Shown one piece after another: positions 1 through 26,021 of a stretch of 28,564 nt of DNA. Origin of the DNA: an uncultured virus (IMG/VR IMGVR_UViG_3300037840_000439) (lineage: Duplodnaviria; Heunggongvirae; Uroviricota; Caudoviricetes); IMG/VR virus record IMGVR_UViG_3300037840_000439. One strand, written 5' to 3'. Both the position numbers and the translations under genes were made by a program. Under the pieces are notes generated by a model. That model saw only the letters and a list, made by a program, of their open reading frames with translations, had not been told where the DNA came from and did no database searches. The number at the start of each line of letters is the position of its first letter. Position 1 is the first letter of the stretch.

Positions 1-2
1 AT

Positions 3-131
3 ACTCCCGGCTGGCTTAGAGTCGGCTTGGTGGCAACAGGTATGGTCCTTGGCAGCGGCCTCGTCTACGTCCTCATGCGGAACGAGGTATTGGAGACAAC
101 GACCCACCATTACATACGGCCGGGGAAGTGA
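3..131 (+). CDS. 3' end of a membrane protein with a C-terminal TM helix (partial)
   Basis: Frame 3 reads TPGWLRVGLVATGMVLGSGLVYVLMRNE...PGK*. Its TGA overlaps the start of the next gene, and the TM tail resembles those of downstream genes. Confidence 0.6.
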   Translation, partial: TPGWLRVGLVATGMVLGSGLVYVLMRNEVLETTTHHYIRPGK

Positions 132-358
132 TGGAACGGATCAAGATTGGCGGACGGCCCGTAGCCGGGTTCGGCGTCGGTCTCGACCTCGACGAGATCG
201 CGAATAGGTACGACCCTCTCTACAAATGCCACAACGACAAGATCGTCAAGCTCAAGGTAGTCGGTGCGGTCGTTGCTACCGCGCTGGTGACCGCAGGGAC
301 CATCCTCTACATTTTGCCGCTCATGAAGACTGAGTACGAACTTCGAAAGAGGACGTGA
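128..358 (+). CDS. small membrane protein with N-terminal GRxVxGFxVG motif and C-terminal TM
   Basis: ERIKIGGRPVAGFGVG at the N-terminus; hydrophobic VVGAVVATALVTAGTILYIL; start/stop overlaps on both sides. Confidence 0.75.
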   Translation: MMERIKIGGRPVAGFGVGLDLDEIANRYDPLYKCHNDKIVKLKVVGAVVATALVTAGTILYILPLMKTEYELRKRT

Positions 359-1065
359 TGGAACAGATCAGGTTTGCCGGGCGGCGAGTAGCGGGGTTCG
401 GGGTTGGGGCTTGGTACAGCACCAACCCAATGGAGCAAGTAGAGGCTCTAGTCAAAGACTCCGACATGCGGATGCAGCAACTGACGGACGCATTCAATGC
501 GTTCTCTCCGAAGTGGAGTGCTACCAACACGGCCACGTACAACGATTTCTTGGCTGACTACACCAGCCTTTTGTCACGTTACGCCATCGCGAAGATCCTA
601 GCGCCTGCCGCGACTGGATTCTGGGCAACGCCGACGGATATCGAAAAGGCAACTACCGCACTTACGAAAGCATTCCGAGCCGGCGCTCCTGGTGAACAGA
701 CGAAAGGCGATTGGGCCGATCTGGTTGAACGTCTTCGTCTCGCCCAGAAAGCAACGGGTGTTCCAGAAATGGTTGATCAGCCACCAACTGCACTTAAGAA
801 TGTACAGAACGAAGAAAATGTCGCAGACAATTTCTACAAGGCAACGGCGAAATACGATATCCCCGCGCAACTGACGGGCGAGATGGCGCCACATGCACCT
901 GTCCAGGCAGCTCTTGATGCGGCAGCTGCGGCAGCCAAAGCGGCTGCTGACGCGGGTAAGACGATCACCGACGCAGCCAAATGGTTCGACGACCACAAGA
1001 CCGGCATCGCGATCGGCGCAACCGTTCTAGTTGGCGGCATTCTTTACGCGATCGTCCGACGATGA
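355..1065 (+). CDS. tail-anchored protein with N-terminal GRxVxGFxVG motif (putative virion/membrane protein)
   Basis: EQIRFAGRRVAGFGVG; C-terminal KTGIAIGATVLVGGILYAIVRR; last ~80 aa similar to the C-terminus of 1062-2051. Confidence 0.8.
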   Translation: MMEQIRFAGRRVAGFGVGAWYSTNPMEQVEALVKDSDMRMQQLTDAFNAFSPKWSATNTATYNDFLADYTSLLSRYAIAKILAPAATGFWATPTDIEKATTALTKAFRAGAPGEQTKGDWADLVERLRLAQKATGVPEMVDQPPTALKNVQNEENVADNFYKATAKYDIPAQLTGEMAPHAPVQAALDAAAAAAKAAADAGKTITDAAKWFDDHKTGIAIGATVLVGGILYAIVRR

Positions 1066-2051
1066 TCTCGTTCGGGGGTCAATCCGTAAGGCTTGGCGGC
1101 CGACCTGTCTGCGGCTTCTCTCTCGGTGTCGACGACAGCGACGTCGACTCGCTTGTCGCCGCGAAGCTCGCCGAAGGTGGTTATTCAGACGTCTCGGCAT
1201 ACCAACGAGCGAAGGGTCTCGCGGTCGACGGCGTAGCGGGCCACGACACGCTCACCGCGATGGGCTACGGCTACCTGTACGATCTCGCTGGACAGGGGAA
1301 GCTCAAACCAGGACAGACGCAGCTCGACACAAAGAAGACGCCGCTCACGCCCGAAAAAGCGGCACAGGCGCTTAGCACTGGTTACCAGGCGATTGCAGGC
1401 ACGGCGCCAACACCTGAAATTCTCGCGCTTCTCATCGCACAATCTGCCAGTGAGACCACCAACTGGCGAGACATCTCCAACTACAACTTCGCCGGAATCA
1501 AGGCGTCACCTGGCGACAAATATGTGCAGGCCATGGTGGATGGCAATCGAGGAAATCGTCATGTGTACGCATTTGCGGCGTACAAAACTCCGGCTGAAGG
1601 CGCCGAGAAGTACATCAGTCTGCTCAAGGCGCATGGACGCGAACCATGGTGGGAAGGACTCCAAACCGGCGACCCTGAGACATACGTGAACGCGCTTGTG
1701 TCGATTCCTGGCGCGCACTACTTCGAGGCTCCTACGGAGAAATATCTTGCCAGCGTTCGGGCTGGTGTTGCTCGATTCGCTGACTTGGCGCGGCAGTACG
1801 CAACAAGCAATGCAGCTGACACCTTCTACAAGAAGGCTGCTCCGTACGACGTCGTCGCGCAAGTAACCGGTAAGCAGGCACCCAGTGCACCTGTCAAGGT
1901 TGCCGTCAACGTAGCTAAGACTACGTTCGAAGAAGTGGTCAAGGCTCAAGGGTGGGTCGACAAGAACAAGACGTGGATAGCGGTCGGAGCTACGGTCTTG
2001 ATCGGGAGCGTATTCTACGCGATCGTGCGACCCAGGACCCAGGAGAGCTAG
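1062..2051 (+). CDS. peptidoglycan hydrolase: PG-binding domain + GH73/glucosaminidase-like lysozyme domain + C-terminal TM
   Basis: ATGA-coupled start at 1062; YQRAKGLAVDGVAGHDT (PG_binding_1-like); LIAQSASET..NYNFAGIKA..FAAYKTPAEG (FlgJ/GH73-like); TM tail. Confidence 0.75.
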   Translation: MISFGGQSVRLGGRPVCGFSLGVDDSDVDSLVAAKLAEGGYSDVSAYQRAKGLAVDGVAGHDTLTAMGYGYLYDLAGQGKLKPGQTQLDTKKTPLTPEKAAQALSTGYQAIAGTAPTPEILALLIAQSASETTNWRDISNYNFAGIKASPGDKYVQAMVDGNRGNRHVYAFAAYKTPAEGAEKYISLLKAHGREPWWEGLQTGDPETYVNALVSIPGAHYFEAPTEKYLASVRAGVARFADLARQYATSNAADTFYKKAAPYDVVAQVTGKQAPSAPVKVAVNVAKTTFEEVVKAQGWVDKNKTWIAVGATVLIGSVFYAIVRPRTQES

Positions 2052-3136
2052 TGAACTTCAACGGTCGCCCTGTAGTCGGTTTTGGCCTTGGTGCTATCAC
2101 CAAGCCAACCGGTAGTCCCTCCACGCTCCCTATCCTGGTGGGAGCGGGTGCCGGCGTTGGTGCGGCCGTCATCGCCTACCGCTACCTCGATACTCCACCC
2201 TTGCAGGCTGCCGCGGGGGGCGCTGTGATTGGGTTGGGAACGGCGATCGGAGTTTCGTTGCTCAGTGGCCGCGAAAAATCTTCAACCAAATTTCTTCCAC
2301 CTGCGCGAACAACCACCAAACGAGGCTCTGAGATCATGACAACCCCCGGAAGCTTCACTTCTACCGTTCAGCAAGCCCTAACCAATGCCGGCTTCAACAC
2401 GGGCGGGATCGACAACGACTGGGGCTCCCATACAAGCGCCGCTGTGCGTGCGTTCCAGAACACCAACAACATGGCGTCCACTGGTCTCCCGGAACCCGAG
2501 ATGCTTCATGCGCTCGGTGTCGCGATCCCGGCCTATCCAGGTGCGACAGACATCGCCAGCGCACTTGCAACAGACCTCGCTGGCGTTGTTGATCCGAAAG
2601 ACGCGATCAAGGTTCTGCTGAACGAGTCGGGTATGGACCCGACCGCCATCAACCATGACTCGAAGGGGAACCCTGTTGCTGCTGGCGTCTTCCAGCTCCT
2701 CGTGTCGGCCATACCCGGATTCACGGGCATGTCGCTCGAAGATTGGACAGCGCTATCGGCTGCCCAGCAGATACCGTACGCAGCTAAGTTCTGGCGGGAG
2801 AAGACATCACAGAATGGTGCGCCATTGCCGGTCTCTGCGCGGGACCTCTACTGGCTCAACTACATGCCTGCGGCCTATACTCCTGGTGCACCCGACGACT
2901 ACCAGTTCGTTCGCAGCGACGACACATGGCTCCCGCGAGGCTCGTCAACCTGGAAGCACGCAGCCGGCTTCTATACCCAGAATGCTGGACTCGACCACCC
3001 TCTGACTCCCGGTGGACCACCGAAGGGATTTATTACGGCTGGCGACATGGCACTCGCGGCTGATCGTGGCGCCATGAACAAGCCGGTGACATACGCCGCG
3101 ATTGCTGACGCGCTGTCTTCCCAAGGAGTCGCATGA
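2051..3136 (+). CDS. membrane-anchored lytic transglycosylase-like protein with PG-binding domain
   Basis: GTG at 2051 overlaps the upstream TAG; two N-terminal TM helices; VQQALTNAGF..GIDNDWGSHTSAAVRAFQ (PG-binding); LLNESGMDPTAIN..AAGVFQL (SLT-like ES and GxxQ motifs). Confidence 0.75.
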   Translation: MNFNGRPVVGFGLGAITKPTGSPSTLPILVGAGAGVGAAVIAYRYLDTPPLQAAAGGAVIGLGTAIGVSLLSGREKSSTKFLPPARTTTKRGSEIMTTPGSFTSTVQQALTNAGFNTGGIDNDWGSHTSAAVRAFQNTNNMASTGLPEPEMLHALGVAIPAYPGATDIASALATDLAGVVDPKDAIKVLLNESGMDPTAINHDSKGNPVAAGVFQLLVSAIPGFTGMSLEDWTALSAAQQIPYAAKFWREKTSQNGAPLPVSARDLYWLNYMPAAYTPGAPDDYQFVRSDDTWLPRGSSTWKHAAGFYTQNAGLDHPLTPGGPPKGFITAGDMALAADRGAMNKPVTYAAIADALSSQGVA

Positions 3137-3354
3137 ACCCCACCATCGACATCGACAGCACCCCTTACGAGGTCTTGCAAACGTTCGGTTTCAACCGTTG
3201 CCTGATCCGCTACGACGGCGGTACGTGCGTGCTCGCCGACCGCGGACCCATCACAGGAGCTTGGGCCCTGTCCGCGATCCCGGCGACCCCCGAAGAAAAC
3301 AAGGTCATTCAGGCGTTCATGCCTACGGACGAGGTCGACACGATACCGGAGTAG
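3133..3354 (+). CDS. hypothetical protein
   Basis: ATGA overlap with the upstream gene; AAGGAG RBS. Confidence 0.65.
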   Translation: MNPTIDIDSTPYEVLQTFGFNRCLIRYDGGTCVLADRGPITGAWALSAIPATPEENKVIQAFMPTDEVDTIPE

Positions 3355-3355
3355 T

Positions 3356-3733
3356 TCAGAACCGTCGTCGCGACATCCGTTGCCGAACCAACGTTGGTGG
3401 CGGTCTAAGTTCTCTCACAAGTGCCGGAATGTCTTGTGTAGCGACTTCCCACACCACATCAAGATCTACCTCCCAGTACTGGTGAACCACGATGTTTCTC
3501 ATGCCGATAATCTGACGCCACGGAATTGATGTATGTGCTGTACGAAATACAGGAGACAGCTTGGACGCAGCCTCTCCAACAATTCCAACTTGACGAATAA
3601 CTCCATCTCGTAGGAGTGCGCTCTGTGTTCCATTAGCAAGAAAATCGTCTTCGGTTACATCATAGATGTAATCTCTAATGCTGGCGGCAGCGGTCAGAAT
3701 ATCACCAACAAAAGCCTCATCTGTTCGCTTCAT
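3356..3733 (-). CDS. hepT: HEPN (DUF86/HepT-like) ribonuclease toxin
   Basis: IPWRQIIGMRNIVVHQYWEVDLDVVWEV contains Rx4HxY; coupled to the MNT gene. Confidence 0.9.
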   Translation of the reverse strand: MKRTDEAFVGDILTAAASIRDYIYDVTEDDFLANGTQSALLRDGVIRQVGIVGEAASKLSPVFRTAHTSIPWRQIIGMRNIVVHQYWEVDLDVVWEVATQDIPALVRELRPPPTLVRQRMSRRRF

Positions 3734-4257
3734 ATCAGTACCCCCGCCAAACTGGCACGCCCATTCTCGTAGACCACACGTTCATCCTCAAAAATCGACT
3801 TCCTCCGATGCTCGTTCTTGCTGTTTTCGATCAAGGAGCGCTTGATGAAGTCGACGCGTCGACCAAACAAGTCCGCCATTGCGTCGTTTGCCGCCGTAAG
3901 GCTGCTCAGCGTGCCGAGATGACCCGTCTCGGGTTCGTACAGGATGTCGACATCGCTGGCCGGTCCGAAGTCGTCACGCACGACGGACCCAAATAGCGAT
4001 AGCCGCTTGATGTGATGCTTCTTGCAGATGCGCGCAAGGCGGCGCGGATCTACATGTGGTTTTGACGTAGGGCTATCTGTCTTTGCAAGTCCGGACGGCG
4101 ACAAAAGCGCCACAACACGACCGTTGCGAAGTACCTCGATCGGACCATCCGTACTTAGGTTCCGCAAAACGTCGAACAGTTCACGACGTAGCGAGCTTGC
4201 ATCTACCTGCGGCAGCGACCGAGAGACCGATGAGACCGATTGTGAAACCGTGCGCAT
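3730..4257 (-). CDS. mntA: minimal nucleotidyltransferase antitoxin (MntA-like) with N-terminal Phd/YefM-like domain
   Basis: LFGSVVRDDFGPASDVDIL (GSx10DxD); N-terminal ASSLRRELFDVLRNLSTDGPIEVLRNGRVVALLSP is Phd-like. Confidence 0.85.
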   Translation of the reverse strand: MRTVSQSVSSVSRSLPQVDASSLRRELFDVLRNLSTDGPIEVLRNGRVVALLSPSGLAKTDSPTSKPHVDPRRLARICKKHHIKRLSLFGSVVRDDFGPASDVDILYEPETGHLGTLSSLTAANDAMADLFGRRVDFIKRSLIENSKNEHRRKSIFEDERVVYENGRASLAGVLI

Positions 4258-4264
4258 TTACCAA

Positions 4265-4312
4265 AGTGTACATCGGAGGGGACGGATGTGCAAGCCATGA
4301 TGTACATCATGG
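4265..4312 (-). promoter_or_regulatory. sigma70-like promoter and palindromic operator of the TA operon
   Basis: Minus strand TTGCAC-N17-TACACT, then 7 nt, then ATG; perfect palindrome CCATGATGTACATCATGG at 4295-4312; second TGTACA at 4267-4272. Confidence 0.7.
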
Positions 4313-4315
4313 GGC

Positions 4316-4690
4316 TTAAAACGTAGTCGTCAGCGTGTCGAGCCTGGGGCTCGATGGCCACTGAAGTCTCCGCACCGCCCGATCCACGCACGCCGCGACT
4401 CTAGCGTCCGAAGACTCGACCGTCACACCGACCGCTCGTCCGTGCTTCACGGCTACCTTGATCGTCACGCTGACGTCGTCCGGAACGTTGCACCCCGACA
4501 GCACGTTGTTCATCGGCGCCGAAAGCTGGTTGTTGGTGAGGTCAGCGCCACTGGTTGTCTCGCCGTACTCGTTCACGCGCTCCAAGCTGGTTGCGTCCGC
4601 AACAGCGTCGACGGCGTCTTCGTAGCTCGTTGCGCCAAGCGCGAAACCTGGCACACGGCGACCTCCTCGAGAGATCGTTTCGGTTTTCAT
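4316..4690 (-). CDS. protein with GRxVxGFxLG leader fused to a myxobacterial AgmX/PglI-C (TonB-C-like) domain
   Basis: MKTETISRGGRRVPGFALG; GCNVPDDVSVTIKVAVKHGRAVGVTV..ACVDRAVRRLQWP resembles C-terminal domains I recall from Polyangiaceae. Confidence 0.6.
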   Translation of the reverse strand: MKTETISRGGRRVPGFALGATSYEDAVDAVADATSLERVNEYGETTSGADLTNNQLSAPMNNVLSGCNVPDDVSVTIKVAVKHGRAVGVTVESSDARVAACVDRAVRRLQWPSSPRLDTLTTTF

Positions 4691-4887
4691 TTGGCCAGCT
4701 CCTTGGGTGTACTCGCCGCCCCGCCCACGAAGGCACCGATCACAGCGCCCGCTGCCCCACCAAGGACCATGGCGTCCTCGACATTGACATCGTAGCGAAG
4801 TCGGACCGCATACTTGGCGGCAGCCGCCCCCACGACACCACCTGCGATTGCGCCGAAGGCGCTCCAGAAGCCGGCTTTGTTGTTCAT
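4687..4887 (-). CDS. small two-TM glycine-zipper membrane protein
   Basis: FGAIAGGVVGAAAA and LGGAAGAVIGAFVGGA; ATGA-coupled to the next gene. Confidence 0.7.
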   Translation of the reverse strand: MNNKAGFWSAFGAIAGGVVGAAAAKYAVRLRYDVNVEDAMVLGGAAGAVIGAFVGGAASTPKELAK

Positions 4888-5011
4888 GTCAAGAGCCTAC
4901 GACAAATCAAGCCTGTCGCCCATTGTTCGCGGTGCAACCTTGGCTGACGGCGGATCTACTTGGCCGAAGGCCCAGCGAGCAGCTCAGTTACGAACCATGG
5001 ATTTCAAGGCT

Positions 5012-5249: not shown

Positions 5250-5642
5250 TTAGCTCAGCTCAGCCTCGGTCTTGTGCAGGTACGTCCCGATCGCACAAGA
5301 AGCTATGGCACCCTCCTCTGGCATCTCAATGACGAGCCAAAAGGCCAGTGCGTCCATCGGCATCTGAAGCTTCTTCTGTGCCGACTCGCGGGCAAGAGGA
5401 TGGGCGGCTCGCTGCATCTCATTCCAACGCACGAACGCCGTTTCGACGTACACGCTACGTGGAGCTGCGGCAAAGCCATCTTCGTTCCCCTCCCGGTGAC
5501 CAACAAGAACAATATCAGCGGTCTGAAACTGCTCTCGCGCCTCCAAGTACGCCCCCAGCAGTTGGCGAGGAGCGATCGACTCAACGATTTTCTTCATGCT
5601 ATCGCTGGTCCCGGGGGCAACTATGAGTTCGGCCTTATTCAT
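5250..5642 (-). CDS. hypothetical protein
   Basis: ATGA-like coupling to the upstream ORF; globular composition. Confidence 0.6.
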   Translation of the reverse strand: MNKAELIVAPGTSDSMKKIVESIAPRQLLGAYLEAREQFQTADIVLVGHREGNEDGFAAAPRSVYVETAFVRWNEMQRAAHPLARESAQKKLQMPMDALAFWLVIEMPEEGAIASCAIGTYLHKTEAELS

Positions 5643-5935
5643 TTGGAATGGTCTCCTAGCTTGCACAACACTGCGCGTCCAGCCTCGTCCAGCGCACTCA
5701 CGTTCTCTTCCTCACTTCCCCGGGCGATCTCCTCAAGCATAGCGTCGGCATTACGGGAGCAAAGCTCCTCTAAGGCGCGAACGAACTTCTCTTGTGAGCG
5801 TTGAGAACGGAAGTGGACCGCCGAGATACTGCCGCCGCAATCTTCACCATCACGGACGATGCTGTACTCGACGTCCACTATGTAGCCTCGCTTCCCCGCG
5901 CGCACTCGCGCATCGAATCGGTTACTACGCTTCAT
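5639..5935 (-). CDS. hypothetical protein
   Basis: ORF within the minus-strand gene run; likely start MKRSNRF. Confidence 0.55.
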   Translation of the reverse strand: MKRSNRFDARVRAGKRGYIVDVEYSIVRDGEDCGGSISAVHFRSQRSQEKFVRALEELCSRNADAMLEEIARGSEEENVSALDEAGRAVLCKLGDHSK

Positions 5936-9980: not shown

Positions 9981-10004
9981 GGTTATCCCTCTCTGTTTTG
10001 CCAC

Positions 10005-10301
10005 CTAGGAAACGGTCCTACCACTTCCTCGTCTGGCTCGCGACCGAATGCTTGCCGCGATATCGTGCGCAACATCCGCATCCCGGCTGACGCCTTCAGA
10101 GTAGTTTGGGCACCAGTAGTCTGCCAGCTTGGCACACGCTTCGCGCTCGACTGCGACCGCGTCACAGCTAGGTAACCGCCATTCCCCGGGTGCCGCACCG
10201 TGATCGCCGTTGTTGTCGAGGATCGCCCCGCAAAACGGGCACCAGTTTACGAGCGTCTCCCCCGCGTCGATGGTGACAGCTTCAGAATGCGTACAGCTCA
10301 T
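10005..10301 (-). CDS. hypothetical phage protein
   Basis: CPFCG; EREACAKLA..IAASIRSR is typical of small phage proteins; ATGA coupling with parB. Confidence 0.6.
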   Translation of the reverse strand: MSCTHSEAVTIDAGETLVNWCPFCGAILDNNGDHGAAPGEWRLPSCDAVAVEREACAKLADYWCPNYSEGVSRDADVAHDIAASIRSRARRGSGRTVS

Positions 10302-11245
10302 TCCGCCGCTTTCTCCCCATGCTTCCTCCACTCGCCGCTCCGAATAAGCCCCGGGATCTGATCAGGTGCTCCAGCCCAGTCGCCTTTGGCATTCCAGGTA
10401 GCCTCGATCCAAGAGGCGATGGCCTCGGCGACCTCGTTCTCTAGCTTCTTCCCCGCCTTTGCTTCCGCTTTCGCCTCCGAAGCTTCCGACGAAGCCTCCA
10501 ACAAAGCCCCCAACTTCTTCGTCTTTGTCTTGCGCACGATCTCGCGCGCTTTCTTCGCATTCTTCGAACGCTTCTTGCCGGGGGTGCGAGGGGCCTTCTC
10601 CAGTAGCTCGGCGAGCATCTTCTTCGCCTGCTCCGGATCGGTTTTCGCCTCGCGCGCGAGCTTGTACGAATCAGACGTTGAGATCTTGCCGGCAGCCTCA
10701 GCGTTACGAACAGCAGCTGGAGCATCAAGTAGCCGCAGGAGATTTTTGACGGTCGACTCGCTGACACCGAGCAGGACAGCCACTTCTTTCTCGTCCCGCC
10801 CGAGAGCTATGTACCGCTGGATTTTCTTCGCTCGGTTCTCCGCCGAATCTTCGGTTCGGTGCTCGTTGGCCGAAATGAGCATGCCCATGGCACTCTGATC
10901 GCTTGCCCGCTTGATCCAAACCGGTAGCCGGATCGGTTCGAGACCTTGCTTCTTGAGCCGACGATTGGCTTCTCGCGCGGCCTTGGTGCGCTGCCGACCA
11001 TCGATGATCTCGATCTTGCCGGTCTCTCTGTTCCGGCGACCAGAGAGCGGCTCTATAATACCCTGCGGGACCCCCTCGGGCGCAAACATAATATTCAAGA
11101 CCAACGACTCCTTGTAGTCGTTGTCCACACGCTCATCGTAGAGCGCCGAGGCCTTATCGTCGACCAGCACAACATCATCCGGATCGAACGTGGGAACGTC
11201 GATCTTGCCCAAGTTACCCAGCTTGTCCCGCGCTGCTTTCGGCAT
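10298..11245 (-). CDS. parB: ParB/Spo0J-like protein (ParB N-terminal domain + HTH)
   Basis: GIIEPL..IEIIDGRQRTKAA; HTH EKEVAVLLGVSESTVKNLLRLL; GGAGG RBS. Confidence 0.85.
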   Translation of the reverse strand: MPKAARDKLGNLGKIDVPTFDPDDVVLVDDKASALYDERVDNDYKESLVLNIMFAPEGVPQGIIEPLSGRRNRETGKIEIIDGRQRTKAAREANRRLKKQGLEPIRLPVWIKRASDQSAMGMLISANEHRTEDSAENRAKKIQRYIALGRDEKEVAVLLGVSESTVKNLLRLLDAPAAVRNAEAAGKISTSDSYKLAREAKTDPEQAKKMLAELLEKAPRTPGKKRSKNAKKAREIVRKTKTKKLGALLEASSEASEAKAEAKAGKKLENEVAEAIASWIEATWNAKGDWAGAPDQIPGLIRSGEWRKHGEKAAE

Positions 11246-15458: not shown

Positions 15459-16406
15459 GCACCGACTTCGAAATCGTCTGCGACGCTTGCGAGCTCCGGA
15501 TGCATGCTGGCCAATTCATGGGTGGTGGCTCGTCGTTTGGTTACGGATCCACCGATGCAGAAAGTCGCCAGGCTGTCTCAGACTTCGCGTTCGAACATGC
15601 ATACCACTCGCTTGATGGCGTGCGTATCGTCGTATCAGACACGACGGAGAAGAAGCGGAGCGACCAGTACAAGGATCTGGACGAAGAAGCCGACCTGGCA
15701 GGCGTCGATGTCGGTACTATCGTGGAACGCCATCGGAAAAGACGTGAATTGCTTGAGTCCGGCGTCGAGCACGCCGAGGCACTAGGTCAAGCCGTCACCA
15801 GCTTTTTAGCCACTCCCACCAGCGATATGGTGGAACGGTTCGGTAAAACCAACCACCAAGTCCCCAAAGAATGGGGTCGTCGAGCCCGCGACTTCGTACG
15901 CTACTACTTTCACAAGAACAATCACCTCCCAACACATGGGATGGTAGAGCAAGGTGTCAGTCTAACGGCAGCTCAGCTTCGTCATCTCATCGAGGTAGGC
16001 CAGCTCGTCGAGCTACCACTGTACCCAGACGGTCCAAAAGTACAGATCGGTTGTAGTACAGCACACGAGGACGACGAGATTCGAGATCGGATCGGATCGC
16101 TAATCAACGGTAGCGGTGATTTTTCGATCGGTAGCAAAGTCTGGCCAGGCGCATCGAAAGTCATCGAGGAAATAGGTGAACTGATGCAGGTGCTGGGTAA
16201 GCTCATTGCCGTAGCCGGCGATACGAAGCACTGGGATGGTGACCTGCGACCACGGCTCGTCGAGGAGATGGGTGACCTCACCGCCGCGCTTATGTTCTTC
16301 CACAACAGAGAACCTAACCGCTGACGAACAACAGCAAATCGTCGAACGAACCAAGAAAAAGCGCGATCTTTTCCGGCAGTGGCACGCCGACCCGAGGAAA
16401 CCATGA
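15455..16406 (+). CDS. protein with C-terminal MazG-like NTP pyrophosphatase domain; apparent frameshift near 16300
   Basis: KVIEEIGELMQVLGK..LVEEMGDL; the shifted frame continues ENLTADEQQQIVERTKKKRDLFRQWH to an ATGA overlap at 16403-16406. Confidence 0.65.
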
Positions 16407-16530
16407 GCGTTCTACCCGACCACGAGATTCGCGCCATGGGCACTCGGCTCATCGAACCGTTCGACCCGGAACGCGTGCAACCGGCGAGCTACGATCTCAC
16501 ACTTGCAGACGAGATTTTGCTTCCCAGCAA
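16403..16530 (+). pseudogene. dcd: dCTP deaminase 5' fragment
   Basis: MSVLPDHEIRAM..LIEPFDPERVQPASYDLTL; similarity is lost after ~40 aa. Confidence 0.8.
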
Positions 16531-16754
16531 AAGCGACAAAACACCTGTTCGACGACAATCTTTCGAGCGGAGAAGAGATCGATATCCAGCAGCTAGCATG
16601 GCTGCTGGATACAGTAGGAGCCAAACCTTACCTGCGAAGGCGCCTGGCAGTGCTCCAGGAGATCATTGATACCTCGCGTGTCTTCGGTAAGCGTTACAAC
16701 GCAGCCGTAGACGAACTGGAAGAAATTGAAGAGTTGCTTGACATCAACCAATGA
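16530..16754 (+). pseudogene. 3' remnant of an unrelated gene joined to the dcd stub
   Basis: Protein-like helical frame (HLFDDNL..EELLDINQ) with no convincing start. Confidence 0.4.
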
Positions 16755-22505: not shown

Positions 22506-25500
22506 TCATCGAATTTCTACCGCCCCACCCCCATACGCTCGCTCCACTCCAGCGAGAAACACTTCGCTAACTTCAATTCGCTGAGGGAGCTTCATCAAGG
22601 TCTCCGCTCCCGTCTCCAACACGAGCCGCAACCCCACGGGCACACTCCCCTTCACCTTCTCGAGCACGTCCTGAAGCGGTTCCAGTGTCGCGGGTGCCCG
22701 CACGGTCACAATCGCAGCTCTCGCCTCGAGCTTCACAGCATCGCTCAAAAGCCGCACGTCTTTGACTAGCAGAGTCGTTGTGACCTTCCCTTCTTCGTCC
22801 TCATCCTGCTTCAGCCGACCGAAGACCATAACGGGCTCGCCGCGAGCCAAGAGCGACCCATACGCGTCGTAGCTGCGAAGCTTCGCATCCACGTGACCCG
22901 TACGATCGCCGAGCGAGAAGAACGAGATGTTCCACTCTTCCTTCACGCGGTACTCCTGCACCATCCCCGTCAAGCGGACCATTGTACCGTCCGCCAGTTC
23001 GTCGCAGCGCTCGATGGGAATCACCTGCAAGCGTTCTAGAACACGGCTGGCACCCGCGTAGCGATCCATGGGGTGTCCGGAAACGTAAAAGCCCAGCGCC
23101 TTGCGCTCTCTGGCGAGCTTCTCGCGCTGGTCCCACGCCGGAACGCTGACGTACTCGGGCTTCCCCTCGAAGATCTCTGCTGTGGTCCCCCCAGAGAACC
23201 AGTTGAGCTGCCCCCGCTTCGCGTCCTTCGCTAGCGGCTTGGCGCGCTTGATTGCAAGCTCCACGGTTGCGAACGCTTTTGCCCGCTCAACGCCAAGAGA
23301 GTCGAGCGCCCCGCACTGGACGAGCGTTTCGAGTACCCCCTTCTTCACGTCCACACGCGAAGCGACGTCAAAGAGATCGTGGAACGGGCGCTTGTCTAGT
23401 ACGCCCGCGAGCGCGGCTTCTCCGAGACCACGGACGGCGCCGAGCCCGAAGCGAATTGCGCCATCTTCCACCTTGAAGCTGAGATCGCTCTGGTTGATGT
23501 CCGGTGGGAGCACCCGGATCCCCATCGCGAGCGCGTCGGCGAGCGTGCGCACCACCAGCTCGCTCTTGTCCTGGTCACACGTGAGGGAGGCGCACAGCAG
23601 CTCGGCCGGGTGATAGATCTTCAAGTACGCAGTCTGGTACGTCAGCAGCGCATAGCCCGAGGCGTGCGAGACGTTGAAGCCATAGCCAGAGAAAAAGTCG
23701 AGCAGGTCGAAGATGCGGTTCGCCTCTTGTGCCTCGACGCCGTTCTTTCCAGCACCCTCGACGAACCCCGCTCTCTCCTTCGCCATCTCTGCCGGCTTCT
23801 TCTTGCCCATCGCTCTCCGCAGGAGGTCGGCTCGTGCCAGCGTGTAGCCCGCGAGCAGGCGAGCCACCCACATAACCTGCTCCTGGTAGACCACAACGCC
23901 GTAAGTGTCCTTCAGGTGCTCATCCACGAGTGGGTGGAACGACGTCACCTTCTCGCGCTTGTTCTTGCGCTCCACGTAGCTCTTGCACATCCCCGAACCT
24001 AGCGGCCCTGGACGAAAGAGCGACACACCGGCCACGATGTCGCCGAAGCGATCGGGCCTCATGTCCCGAAAGAGCTGCTGCATTCCCGACGACTCGAGCT
24101 GAAACACGCCCTTGGTCTCGCCAGTCGCCAGGAGCGCGTACACCTTCGGATCATCGAGAGAGAGCTGATTCAGGTAGAGCAACCCCTCTGCGTCCACAGG
24201 TTCTCCACAGCCTGAGGGAAACCCTCCACACGCCCTGTAGGCTTGCTCCCACGCCAGTGGGGGCAGGACTCCGCCACATGCCTCGTACGCCCTCTGCCAC
24301 GCCTCCGGAGGCCCTCCTCGGGGGCCAATGAGCCGGCGCGCGATCTCCAACACTGTGAGCGTCTTGAGCCCCAGAAAATCGAACTTGACGAGCCCGGCTG
24401 CCTCCACCTCGTTCATCGCGTACTGCGTGACGTAGTTGCCGTGGTCGTCGCGAAATACGGGCACGTGATCCCAAAGCGGCCCTTCGCTGATGACGATACC
24501 GGCCGCATGCACGCCCACGTGGCGCGTGAGACCCTCGAGCTTCTGCGCGTACGAAATGACCTCCTTGTACTCGGGCGCGCCGAGCTTCGATTCCGCCACG
24601 ATAGCTTCCGCGATCGTGGTCGAGTGGGTCTGCGATCCAGGTGGGATCATGTTCGCGATCTTTTGCGCATCCATCGGTGCCATGCCCAGCGCACGAGCCA
24701 CATCCTTGATGACGCTTCGAGCCTTCAGCTCCATGAAGGTTGCGATCTGCCCCACGCTCTCAGCGCCGTACTTCTGCCGGACGTAGGCCACAACTTCGTC
24801 GCGCCGCACCATGCAGAAGTCGATGTCAAAGTCCGGCATGCTCACACGATCTGGATTCAGAAAGCGCTCGAAGAGAAGTCCGTGGCGGATGGGATCGATG
24901 TCCGTGATACGGAGTGCGTAGGCCACGAGGCTTCCGGCACCACTACCTCTGCCCGGACCCACAGGGATGCCGCGTTCCTTCGCGAAGCGGATGAAGTCCC
25001 ACACGATCAGAAAGTAGCCCGGGAAGTTCATCTTGCAGATGACGTCCAACTCGAACGCCAACCGTTGCTCACAGACATCTCTCGGTGCGCCGGCTATGCC
25101 ACCCTCAGCGAACCGGCGCTCCAGCCCCTCACGAGCGAGATGCCGGAAGTAACTTTCCGCCGTGTACCCCTGCGGAACCGGAAAGTTCGGCAACATTGGC
25201 TTGTTCAAGTCGAGCTTCAGTCCCGAGCACTTTTCTGCAATCTCCAGAGTGGCGGCGAGCGTAGGTGCCGTGAAGAGCTGTGCCATCTCTTCGCCCGACT
25301 TGAGATACATCTCACTCGACCCGTGATGGTCACCTCGAGCAACAACGAGTTGTCGCTGGTTCTTGACGCATCCGAGAACCAAGTGTGCATCAGCGTCGCC
25401 ACGCTCCGGGTAGTGCACGTCATTGGTCGCGACCTTCCGCAGCCCGTGGTGAATCGACAGGTCGTGTAGAATCGCGTTCAGGGGAGCCTGCTCTGGCAAG

Positions 25501-26021
25501 TGATGATCCTGAAGCTCGACGTAGAGCGCTCCTGGTTCGAACCGTTCCCGGAGCTGCCCCAAGAGCAGGCTTCCCTGGTGCTCACCCTCGTGCAGGATGC
25601 GTTGCGACAGCGGGCTACCCATGCAGCCGGTCAGGCCAATGAGCCCCTTCGTACGGCCTTCCAGGTGGTGCAGCAGGTGCTCGGCGCGGGCGCGCTCCAG
25701 CGCGACTGGATCTTGCGGAACGCCCAGCTCGGCCTGCGGAATCGCGGTCGCATGGGAGGCTAACCACATGAGGTTTTTGTAGCCTTCTGCGGTTGCTGCC
25801 AGGAGCGGGAGGTGACCGATCTCACAGCCGAGGATGGGCTGGATGTTGGCTTCCTTCGCCGCCTTGTAGAAGTTCAGGATGCCGAACATGTTGCCGTGAT
25901 CGGTCACCGCGACGGCGCGCTGGCCTGCGGCGGCCATGCGCTTGACGAGATCCTTCACCTTCACCGCTCCGTCGAGGAGCGAGAACTGCGTGTGGACGTG
26001 GAGGTGGACGAACTCTGTCAC
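22506..26021 (-). CDS. dnaE: DNA polymerase III alpha subunit (family C)
   Basis: PHP HLHVHTQFSLLDG and TDHGN; GPGRGSGAGS; PDFDIDF; KFDFLGLKTL; OB-fold C-terminus. Confidence 0.97.
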   Translation of the reverse strand: MTEFVHLHVHTQFSLLDGAVKVKDLVKRMAAAGQRAVAVTDHGNMFGILNFYKAAKEANIQPILGCEIGHLPLLAATAEGYKNLMWLASHATAIPQAELGVPQDPVALERARAEHLLHHLEGRTKGLIGLTGCMGSPLSQRILHEGEHQGSLLLGQLRERFEPGALYVELQDHHLPEQAPLNAILHDLSIHHGLRKVATNDVHYPERGDADAHLVLGCVKNQRQLVVARGDHHGSSEMYLKSGEEMAQLFTAPTLAATLEIAEKCSGLKLDLNKPMLPNFPVPQGYTAESYFRHLAREGLERRFAEGGIAGAPRDVCEQRLAFELDVICKMNFPGYFLIVWDFIRFAKERGIPVGPGRGSGAGSLVAYALRITDIDPIRHGLLFERFLNPDRVSMPDFDIDFCMVRRDEVVAYVRQKYGAESVGQIATFMELKARSVIKDVARALGMAPMDAQKIANMIPPGSQTHSTTIAEAIVAESKLGAPEYKEVISYAQKLEGLTRHVGVHAAGIVISEGPLWDHVPVFRDDHGNYVTQYAMNEVEAAGLVKFDFLGLKTLTVLEIARRLIGPRGGPPEAWQRAYEACGGVLPPLAWEQAYRACGGFPSGCGEPVDAEGLLYLNQLSLDDPKVYALLATGETKGVFQLESSGMQQLFRDMRPDRFGDIVAGVSLFRPGPLGSGMCKSYVERKNKREKVTSFHPLVDEHLKDTYGVVVYQEQVMWVARLLAGYTLARADLLRRAMGKKKPAEMAKERAGFVEGAGKNGVEAQEANRIFDLLDFFSGYGFNVSHASGYALLTYQTAYLKIYHPAELLCASLTCDQDKSELVVRTLADALAMGIRVLPPDINQSDLSFKVEDGAIRFGLGAVRGLGEAALAGVLDKRPFHDLFDVASRVDVKKGVLETLVQCGALDSLGVERAKAFATVELAIKRAKPLAKDAKRGQLNWFSGGTTAEIFEGKPEYVSVPAWDQREKLARERKALGFYVSGHPMDRYAGASRVLERLQVIPIERCDELADGTMVRLTGMVQEYRVKEEWNISFFSLGDRTGHVDAKLRSYDAYGSLLARGEPVMVFGRLKQDEDEEGKVTTTLLVKDVRLLSDAVKLEARAAIVTVRAPATLEPLQDVLEKVKGSVPVGLRLVLETGAETLMKLPQRIEVSEVFLAGVERAYGGGAVEIR

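Follow-up and report, generated by a model that had tools for sequence, protein, structure and literature searches.

What places one and the same short peptide at the start of five proteins whose cargo domains are otherwise different? The question is raised by a 28,564-nucleotide stretch of DNA from an uncultured virus (IMG/VR record IMGVR_UViG_3300037840_000439), referred to here as the window, in which five proteins begin with a leader of about 17 residues (consensus M-E-x-[IV]-x-[RFL]-G-G-R-P-V-x-G-F-[AGS]-[LV]-G). The analyses described below led us to conclude that the leader is a portable, strictly N-terminal peptide on otherwise different cargoes, as the original prediction had proposed. 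A full-text search that covered main texts gave no description of a conserved N-terminal motif on phage transmembrane or endolysin proteins, and the leader looks like an undescribed address tag. We tentatively favour the reading, held at well below even confidence, that it is a phage-private address tag of the lysis and envelope module, which would act at the cytoplasmic membrane by docking its carriers to one shared partner encoded by the phage.

A portable N-terminal leader on different cargoes

The window was translated in all six frames and searched with the strict regular expression GR[PR]V.GF.[VL]G. Exactly five matches were obtained, namely the five copies on which the prediction had been built (motif starts at nt 152, 379, 1098, and 2063 on the plus strand and nt 4663 on the minus strand). 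The motif follows the start codon (128/131, 355/358, 1062, 2051, and 4690) by 8, 8, 12, 4, and 9 codons, respectively. The number of matches expected by chance from the six-frame residue composition of the window is 1.1e-4, and the motif appeared in 0 of 300 first-order Markov simulations. In the DNA alignment of the five sites, the mean column identity is 59% and the third codon positions vary. Since these positions differ among the five copies, the conservation lies at the protein level, in agreement with the earlier claim.

Leader 1 (MERIKIGGRPVAGFGVG; 131..181, plus strand; match at 152-181) has an ATG at 131 and a GTG at 128. Leader 2 (MEQIRFAGRRVAGFGVG; 358..408, plus strand) and leader 5 (MKTETISRGGRRVPGFALG; 4634..4690, minus strand) also match the regular expression and, together with leader 1, are rows of an alignment termed A2, which comprises 17 leader copies from 8 contigs. 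Leader 4 (VNFNGRPVVGFGLG; 2051..2092, plus strand) matches as well and starts with GTG. In leader 3 (MISFGGQSVRLGGRPVCGFSLG; 1062..1127, plus strand), likewise a match, the first half is partly duplicated in tandem (ISFGG, then QSVRLGG), whereas only the single form is present in the homologue P0002. In A2, six positions are invariant. Three of them remain so in a larger alignment of 30 rows (A3), in which conservation at a further two is 90% or more.

The proteins behind the leaders are of several kinds. Carrier 1 (128..358, plus strand, 76 aa) consists of the leader and one membrane helix (residues 39-57), and no Pfam, PHROG, or NCBIfam family was found for it. In carrier 2 (355..1065, plus strand, 236 aa), the leader is followed by a mainly helical-looking middle and a C-terminal anchor (216-234), and the chain ends in RR; Pfam gave no known family, and an Atlas search returned only unnamed phage clusters (0.89). 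Carrier 3 (1062..2051, plus strand) contains the leader, a PG_binding_1 domain (Pfam E 1.4e-5), a wall hydrolase of the GH73 fold, a stalk, and a C-terminal anchor (304-322), and gave no tblastn match in cultured phages. The Glucosaminidase family PF01832 scored 25.9 bits on it, below the cut-off of 30.2. The core of its AlphaFold model has a predicted local distance difference test score (pLDDT) of 84-97, and the top Foldseek matches were FlgJ (5dn4, E 1.7e-4), Auto (3fi7), and AtlA (7qfu), with probability 1.00. A glutamate at position 131 is invariant in all 18 sequences of the GH73 alignment. Carrier 4 (2051..3136, plus strand) combines the leader with a Gly/Ala-rich two-helix hairpin (24-42 and 53-71), a PG_binding_1 domain, and a C-terminal domain of unconfirmed lysozyme-like type. 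Carrier 5 (4316..4690, minus strand, 124 aa) has no membrane helix and consists of the leader, an acidic linker, and a small C-terminal domain with two invariant cysteines. The cargoes of carriers 3, 4, and 5 had been labelled GH73-like, SLT-like, and AgmX/PglI-C, respectively. The first label is supported by the fold, although the family score lies below its cut-off; the other two are not confirmed: "SLT-like" is a guess from short motifs, with no name for the domain from Pfam or from a PDB sequence search, and carrier 5, for which Pfam gave nothing, reached only E 0.038 and 14.1 bits against the AgmX/PglI C-terminal model NF033768, whose cut-off is 40. The domain of carrier 5 is possibly a distant TonB-C-like fold.

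The middles of the carriers are unrelated, and the carriers are thus not full-length paralogues. The accompanying claim that similarity ends after the final Gly needs a correction, however, since carriers 2 and 3 (starting at 355 and 1062) share an 81-residue C-terminal stalk and membrane anchor (47% identity, E 1e-19) and therefore have common ends around unrelated middles. This shared module and the tandem arrangement of the carriers speak for the idea that the leader is a relic of common descent, that is, that the ends of an ancestral membrane protein were kept and its middle replaced, the motif having no role of its own. We consider this highly improbable. The leader is kept on three architectures (with a C-terminal anchor, with an N-proximal hairpin, and without any helix), and the conservation in A2 and A3 described above stands beside fully diverged flanks, which indicates purifying selection on the peptide itself.

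Comparison of each cargo with its homologues shows the portability of the leader. Among 18 sequences with the GH73 cargo, that of the window included, the leader is present in 12 and absent in 6. A membrane segment is present in every one of the 12 with a leader. Of the six without it, four are plain soluble enzymes whose first residues are those of the wall-binding domain; the other two have a different hydrophobic C-terminal extension in one case and a C-terminal helix in the other. P0012 has the leader and then a two-helix hairpin ahead of the GH73 enzyme, and carrier 4 shows this layout with another enzyme. The carrier 2 alignment (A5; the window's sequence and 10 homologues) has the leader and the hydrophobic C-terminal end in 11 of 11 rows, with a degenerate leader in P0065. 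For carrier 5, the leader is found in 20 of 24 rows (the window's and 23 homologues), three rows having a short N-terminal end. The remaining row, P0070, occurs on 12 contigs, and in it the carrier 5 cargo is preceded by a two-helix Gly-zipper module instead of the leader. The closest homologues in all three alignments thus largely retain the leader, a point on which the original prediction could have failed. The C-terminal domain of carrier 4 shows 28% identity over 171 residues (E 1e-6) to the cargo of L025:5986-6627, in which the domain lies directly behind the leader and no helix is present. Finally, in the AlphaFold model of carrier 3, the leader has a pLDDT under 50 and forms a short hairpin (strands 9-11 and 14-16) that makes no contact with the core.

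Occurrence of the leader among viruses and genomes

The least biased test was a search of 1.84 billion representative proteins with the 30-row leader profile (A3) at E<=0.001. Among the 39 matches, 35 start at residue 1-9, and the motif is thus not placed at random in proteins. The four non-terminal matches are two unrelated proteins with AGFGLGS repeats, one upstream extension before an internal Met, and one duplicated copy.

A back-translated DNA pattern of the motif found 71 loci on 69 contigs of IMG/VR, and the motif lies 5-10 codons past a start codon in 12 of these loci (10 of the 69 contigs). The other 59 loci were set aside as not clearly N-terminal; most are deep in long open frames, and L044 is ambiguous. 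A stricter pattern found 53 loci in 185,579 species genomes, of which one (L109, on a 2-kb contig of an acidobacterial metagenome-assembled genome) is N-terminal. The remaining 52 were set aside, three of them sharing an internal motif of an unrelated conserved protein. With the exception of the L109 contig, the leader is known almost only from virus-like contigs. The carrier phages are uncultured soil and peat phages with contigs of about 60-125 kb. A tblastn search of 50,697 cultured phage records with a 25-residue leader gave no match at E<=10, although the short query makes this a weak search.

A 19-column profile made from A2 was applied to virus records in their full length. With E<=0.01 as the threshold, there were 6, 6, 6, 5, and 2 matches in records G001 to G005, 3, 1, 5, and 5 matches in G006 to G009, and no match in the unrelated G010. 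The matches fall into two clusters in each of G001 to G004, and the complete genomes have 5-6 carriers each at this threshold; overall, the phages are taken to tag five to eight different envelope proteins. In the hidden Markov model scan of the related records, all matches with E<1e-3 lie at starts of open reading frames. G007 was considered as a one-carrier genome lacking a 138-aa protein gene that is described below, and this was rejected: the corresponding region of G006 has no DNA match in G007 and was judged, by its contig coordinates, to lie beyond the end of that record.

The window itself reads as a portion of a phage genome. It also encodes a DnaE-type polymerase (22506-26021, minus strand), ParB, two NUDIX proteins, and a HepT/MNT pair, and its proteins resemble those of the related records (63% identity for ParB, 79% for MNT, 67% for HepT, and 50% for NUDIX). 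The window has no close cultured relative; its DnaE shows 36-39% identity to proteins of Streptomyces and Pseudomonas phages. No DNA match to window positions 1-5000 was found among cultured phages, and searches with single proteins found no close relatives in IMG/VR or the JGI metagenomes. In a protein database, the window proteins are assigned to a 90,564-base contig.

Degenerate leaders with one residue missing (GRPV-x-FGVG) were also observed, at L135:7714-8400, L133:6882, L130:15586, and L136:6010-8806. They are followed by Pro/Trp-rich repeats (WRPEWG.RPAGFGA) and a C-terminal anchor, a cargo type without a known family.

Membrane association and possible roles of the leader

The 17 copies in A2 were compared with the definitions of known targeting signals. 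The leader has no Sec-type hydrophobic core: in 17 of 17 copies, the invariant Arg is followed by P-V-x-G-F-[AGS]-[LV]-G and then by polar or acidic residues. The Tat consensus [ST]-R-R-x-F-L-K is not present either; R-R occurs in 2 of 17 copies and R-P, R-S, or R-Q in the others, and the leader Phe lies four residues past the second position rather than two. A Cys following the final Gly, as in a lipobox, occurs in none of the 17. The Gly-Phe of type IV prepilins is invariant, but Glu at +5 is found in 1 of 17 and no hydrophobic run follows. Small residues as recognised by signal peptidase I are present: if the putative site is placed after the final Gly, position -3 is occupied by A, G, or S in all 17 copies, where the regular expression for accepted copies left -3 free and fixed the Gly at -1.

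These small residues are compatible with a non-classical export or topogenesis signal that replaces a signal peptide and, together with a C-terminal stop-transfer anchor, would give a type-I-like protein with its cargo facing the wall; removal of the leader behind [AGS]-[LV]-G may follow. Extracytoplasmic cargo also fits such a signal (PG_binding_1 with the GH73 fold, bulb-lectin-like repeats recognised by eye at L136 10281, and the domain with two invariant cysteines), as does the joint gain or loss of leader and anchor among the GH73 sequences. On balance we regard the export signal, the main rival of the reading that we favour, as unlikely. A strict motif is unlike degenerate Sec signals, P-V-x-G-F-x-[LV]-G takes the place of a hydrophobic core between the Arg and the last Gly, and the Tat, lipobox, and prepilin definitions do not describe the leader. 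Moreover, only one of the 53 matches in species genomes is N-terminal, which makes a host pathway that reads the leader unlikely.

The carriers are enriched in membrane proteins. A hydrophobic 17-mer is present in 29 of 40 carriers, whereas in G001 it occurs in 30 of 181 crudely called genes (odds ratio 13, p 1.3e-11). The 11 carriers that lack it include several that are fragments or have weaker Gly/Ala helices or a basic amphipathic C-terminus. In 14 of 17 carriers whose sole anchor is C-terminal, the charge is more positive on the anchor's C side, and by the positive-inside rule the cargo and leader would lie outside the cytoplasm, as an export signal predicts. An N-out topology has likewise been argued, in PMC7143992, for M4Lys, which is described there as lysing without Sec or holin. 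The basic stretch past helix 2 in the hairpin carriers (carrier 4 and P0012) points to the opposite, a cytoplasmic N-terminus, and so speaks against export.

The gene order around several leaders is that of a lysis cassette. In L139, a leaderless wall hydrolase (10001-10681) is immediately followed by a leader-bearing two-helix protein (10742, 89 aa); in L012, a leaderless SLT_3 protein (3220-3786) is immediately followed by a leader-bearing two-helix protein (2997-2764); and G001 shows, weakly, a hydrolase (L130 16637-17512) followed by a leader-bearing protein (16341). A hydrolase followed by a leader-bearing two-helix protein corresponds to the usual endolysin-holin order. The proteins at L139 10742 and L012 2997-2764 are small, have two membrane helices, and lie beside an endolysin, as class II holins do, and the leader-bearing two-helix proteins may thus be likened to that class from their predicted features. 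Carrier 3 in turn has the features of an endolysin with a C-terminal transmembrane domain (a GH73 fold, then the helix at 304-322, then RPRTQES, and no Sec signal).

The proposal of a particle-loading signal was not supported by these observations. According to it, the leader is a capsid or virion loading signal, perhaps cut by a protease, and its carriers are ejection proteins with which the phage would open the next host's wall and membrane. The ejection proteins of other phages do contain wall hydrolases and hydrophobic segments. In G001, one leader cluster (9.5-11.6 kb) lies just upstream of collagen-like fibre genes (from 13.3 kb), and the genome encodes an S8-type peptidase (L130:1-1515, E 5.6e-8). 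A terminal tag on several different cargoes per genome also recalls the 10-residue capsid-targeting sequence (CTS) of T4 as described in PMC9026906. We nevertheless consider capsid loading doubtful at best: 29 of the 40 carriers are membrane proteins, the gene order is that of endolysin and holin, and the conservation extends over about 12 residues rather than centring on one scissile bond. The membrane-anchored carriers and the lysis-cassette order point to the cell membrane rather than to the capsid interior. Linkage to a head gene could not be demonstrated, since neither the window nor three CheckV-complete related records yielded a recognisable gene for a capsid, portal, terminase, or prohead protease. 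The HK97-type capsid family PF05065 was found in none of five related records, the TerL families PF03237 and PF03354 in none of three, and no head gene was named by PHROG and Pfam scans of G001. The structural module of the carrier-phage clade is unrecognised, and the capsid and TerL negatives show no more than that.

Every carrier is a potentially lethal envelope protein, and the tag is terminal and contains an invariant Arg. A regulatory N-terminus, that is, a degron or an antiholin-like timing element silencing such proteins until late infection, was therefore also weighed. Charged N-terminal extensions set the timing of the holins of lambda (S) and phage 21, but the extensions of described holins are of 2-3 residues and are not known to carry a sequence motif, and we judge this role very unlikely.

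In the address-tag reading that we prefer, the tag would be a flexible, hairpin-prone peptide outside the fold of the cargo and would dock all carriers to one phage-encoded partner, the simplest partner being the holin-like hairpin proteins' own copy of the tag. Through docking, the effectors of lysis and of the envelope would be assembled with the proteins that breach the membrane, and all could be released jointly. The set of tagged envelope proteins comprises Gly/Ala-rich two-helix proteins (holin-like), C-terminally anchored hydrolases and helical proteins, and proteins with lectin-like and TonB-C-like domains. Support is provided by the fusions of leader, hairpin, and hydrolase (window 2051-3136 and P0012) and by the Gly-zipper swap in P0070. 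Because one of 53 species-genome matches is N-terminal and none was found in the 50,697 cultured phages, a phage-encoded receptor is favoured over a host pathway. A variant that we hold unlikely is that the leader is a phage-private, core-less sorting signal, read by a phage-encoded membrane component (perhaps the tagged hairpin proteins), which would move folded cargo (wall hydrolases and lectin-like and TonB-C-like domains) into or across the cytoplasmic membrane without Sec or Tat.

A further possible partner of the leader is a conserved soluble protein of 138 aa (5250..5666, minus strand), which heads a minus-strand operon. Its homologues adjoin leader clusters in the window, G001 to G004, L140, G006, G008, and G009, and five unrelated phage records lack it. 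No copy was found in G005 or in G007, the latter judged to end before the region. The AlphaFold model of the protein has a pLDDT of 81.7, and its best VIA match (CcmS, Z 5.2) is within the range of chance arrangements.

Several points weigh against the address-tag reading. The docking partner is hypothetical, and the holin role of the carriers is a prediction from sequence. Carrier 5, L025:5986-6627, and L139:2535 have no membrane segment. The topologies suggested by charge bias conflict between anchor-type and hairpin-type carriers, and the wall-binding, lectin-like, and Cys-pair cargoes fit an export signal equally well. The 138-aa protein has neither a fold nor a function that could be recognised (no Pfam or NCBIfam family, no usable Atlas match, and no Foldseek match at E<=0.001), and its co-occurrence with the leader may reflect only shared phage ancestry.

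Genome context and comparison with known systems

The plus-strand genes overlap start to stop (128-358, 355-1065, 1062-2051, and 2051-3136, then 3133-3354), and the overlaps of the four carrier genes indicate that they form one operon. Ahead of carrier 1 is the 3' end of a gene (1..131, plus strand; open frame 3..131) whose product ends in a membrane helix and has its N-terminus outside the window. The last gene of the operon (3133..3354, plus strand) encodes 73 aa with no leader and no family, and its membership in the leader system is uncertain. Another leaderless neighbour is a 66-aa Gly-zipper membrane protein (4687..4887, minus strand), which has weak matches to Gly-zipper Pfam families, is a homologue of the module found in P0070, and is encoded by a gene whose stop overlaps the start of carrier 5. 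The HepT/MNT toxin-antitoxin pair (3356-4257, minus strand) follows the leader operon directly. Its identity to the pairs of G002 and G004 is 65-79%, above the conservation of its neighbours, a level that suggests a mobile cassette. Elsewhere in the window, a 96-aa open reading frame (16379-16669, plus strand) matches only the first third of dCTP deaminase (positions 2-56 of 153 in Pfam DCD) and is possibly a truncated or split dCTP deaminase gene.

In the related genomes, a second shared N-terminus, MSF[VI]IGRGRY..E.YPTAP, is found on six or more collagen-like proteins with GPTGPTG repeats per genome (in G001, L125:13259-15115, L125:18826-20000, L126:104-1153, L126:6980-7675, L126:9548-10705, and L126:15844-17226; also in G004 and G008) and is probably an attachment domain that the fibre proteins have in common. 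G001 also encodes a conserved leaderless membrane protein with a CSQC motif (L125:12408-12668); it is located between the leader cluster and the fibre genes and has homologues in G002 to G004, G008, and G009, the proteins being of 86-100 aa. The genomes G001, G003, and G004 (118-125 kb, CheckV complete) yielded no HK97-type capsid or TerL by Pfam and no PHROG head gene, and a HerA/DUF87-type ATPase is encoded at L129:6970-8742. A HerA-like ATPase without a recognisable capsid or terminase led us to consider tail-less, membrane-containing viruses. As the ATPase lies among replication genes and collagen-like fibre genes are present, this is at most a tentative idea.

Shared terminal address tags sort proteins in cells and viruses, and each new one has exposed a new machine. 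The present tag occurs on almost all envelope-acting gene products of a deep, uncultured phage clade in which the genes for structure and lysis otherwise escape recognition, and it provides a sequence handle for finding such genes in metagenomes. If it served a phage-private sorting route, it would represent a secretion code encoded by a virus and would account for the way in which endolysins carrying a C-terminal transmembrane domain gain access to the wall. If it were sufficient for membrane targeting or export, it could be used as a compact, portable engineering module.

The CTS of T4 is similar in being a short peptide at the extreme N-terminus of several unrelated phage proteins, portable, and phage-private (PMC9026906). 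The two differ in that the T4 cargo is soluble, lies inside the head, and has its CTS cut by the prohead protease, whereas the carriers described here are mostly membrane proteins in a lysis-type order. From cellular systems, Sec and Tat signals, including those of Tat-dependent C-tail-anchored proteins, are as generally understood also N-terminal, with a basic residue, small residues at -3 and -1, and, in the latter proteins, a C-terminal anchor; the leader lacks the hydrophobic core and the twin arginine, has a strict motif, and is absent from host proteins. Type IV prepilins, as generally known, likewise have one N-terminal segment on different co-assembling bodies and an invariant Gly-Phe, but the leader has Glu at +5 in 1 of 17 copies and no hydrophobic stretch, and the anchor of its carriers is at the opposite end of the protein.

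As a precedent for the recognition of an N-terminal region by a phage-private receptor, Gp1 of mycobacteriophage Ms6 would be of interest, since it reportedly binds the N-terminal part of LysA, an endolysin. Gp1 is described as a chaperone that aids Sec-independent export of the endolysin (PMC7143992). It differs from the partner proposed here in having a single client and no short shared motif, and no Gp1-like protein was identified in this study. The closest counterparts of carrier 3 are the described endolysins with a C-terminal helix (PMC7143992, PMC8879335, PMC8943055), namely M4Lys of phage BSPM4, LysAP of phage AP1, and Enc34, in which, as in carrier 3, a hydrolase is followed by a helix and basic residues and no Sec signal is present. 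For M4Lys and LysAP, the helix is reported to be required for lysis (PMC7143992, PMC8879335). The difference lies at the other end of the protein: no shared N-terminal motif was noted in the descriptions consulted for these endolysins, whereas the tag described here also heads proteins that are not enzymes. The tag also bears on how endolysins that have a C-terminal helix and no signal peptide reach the cell wall.

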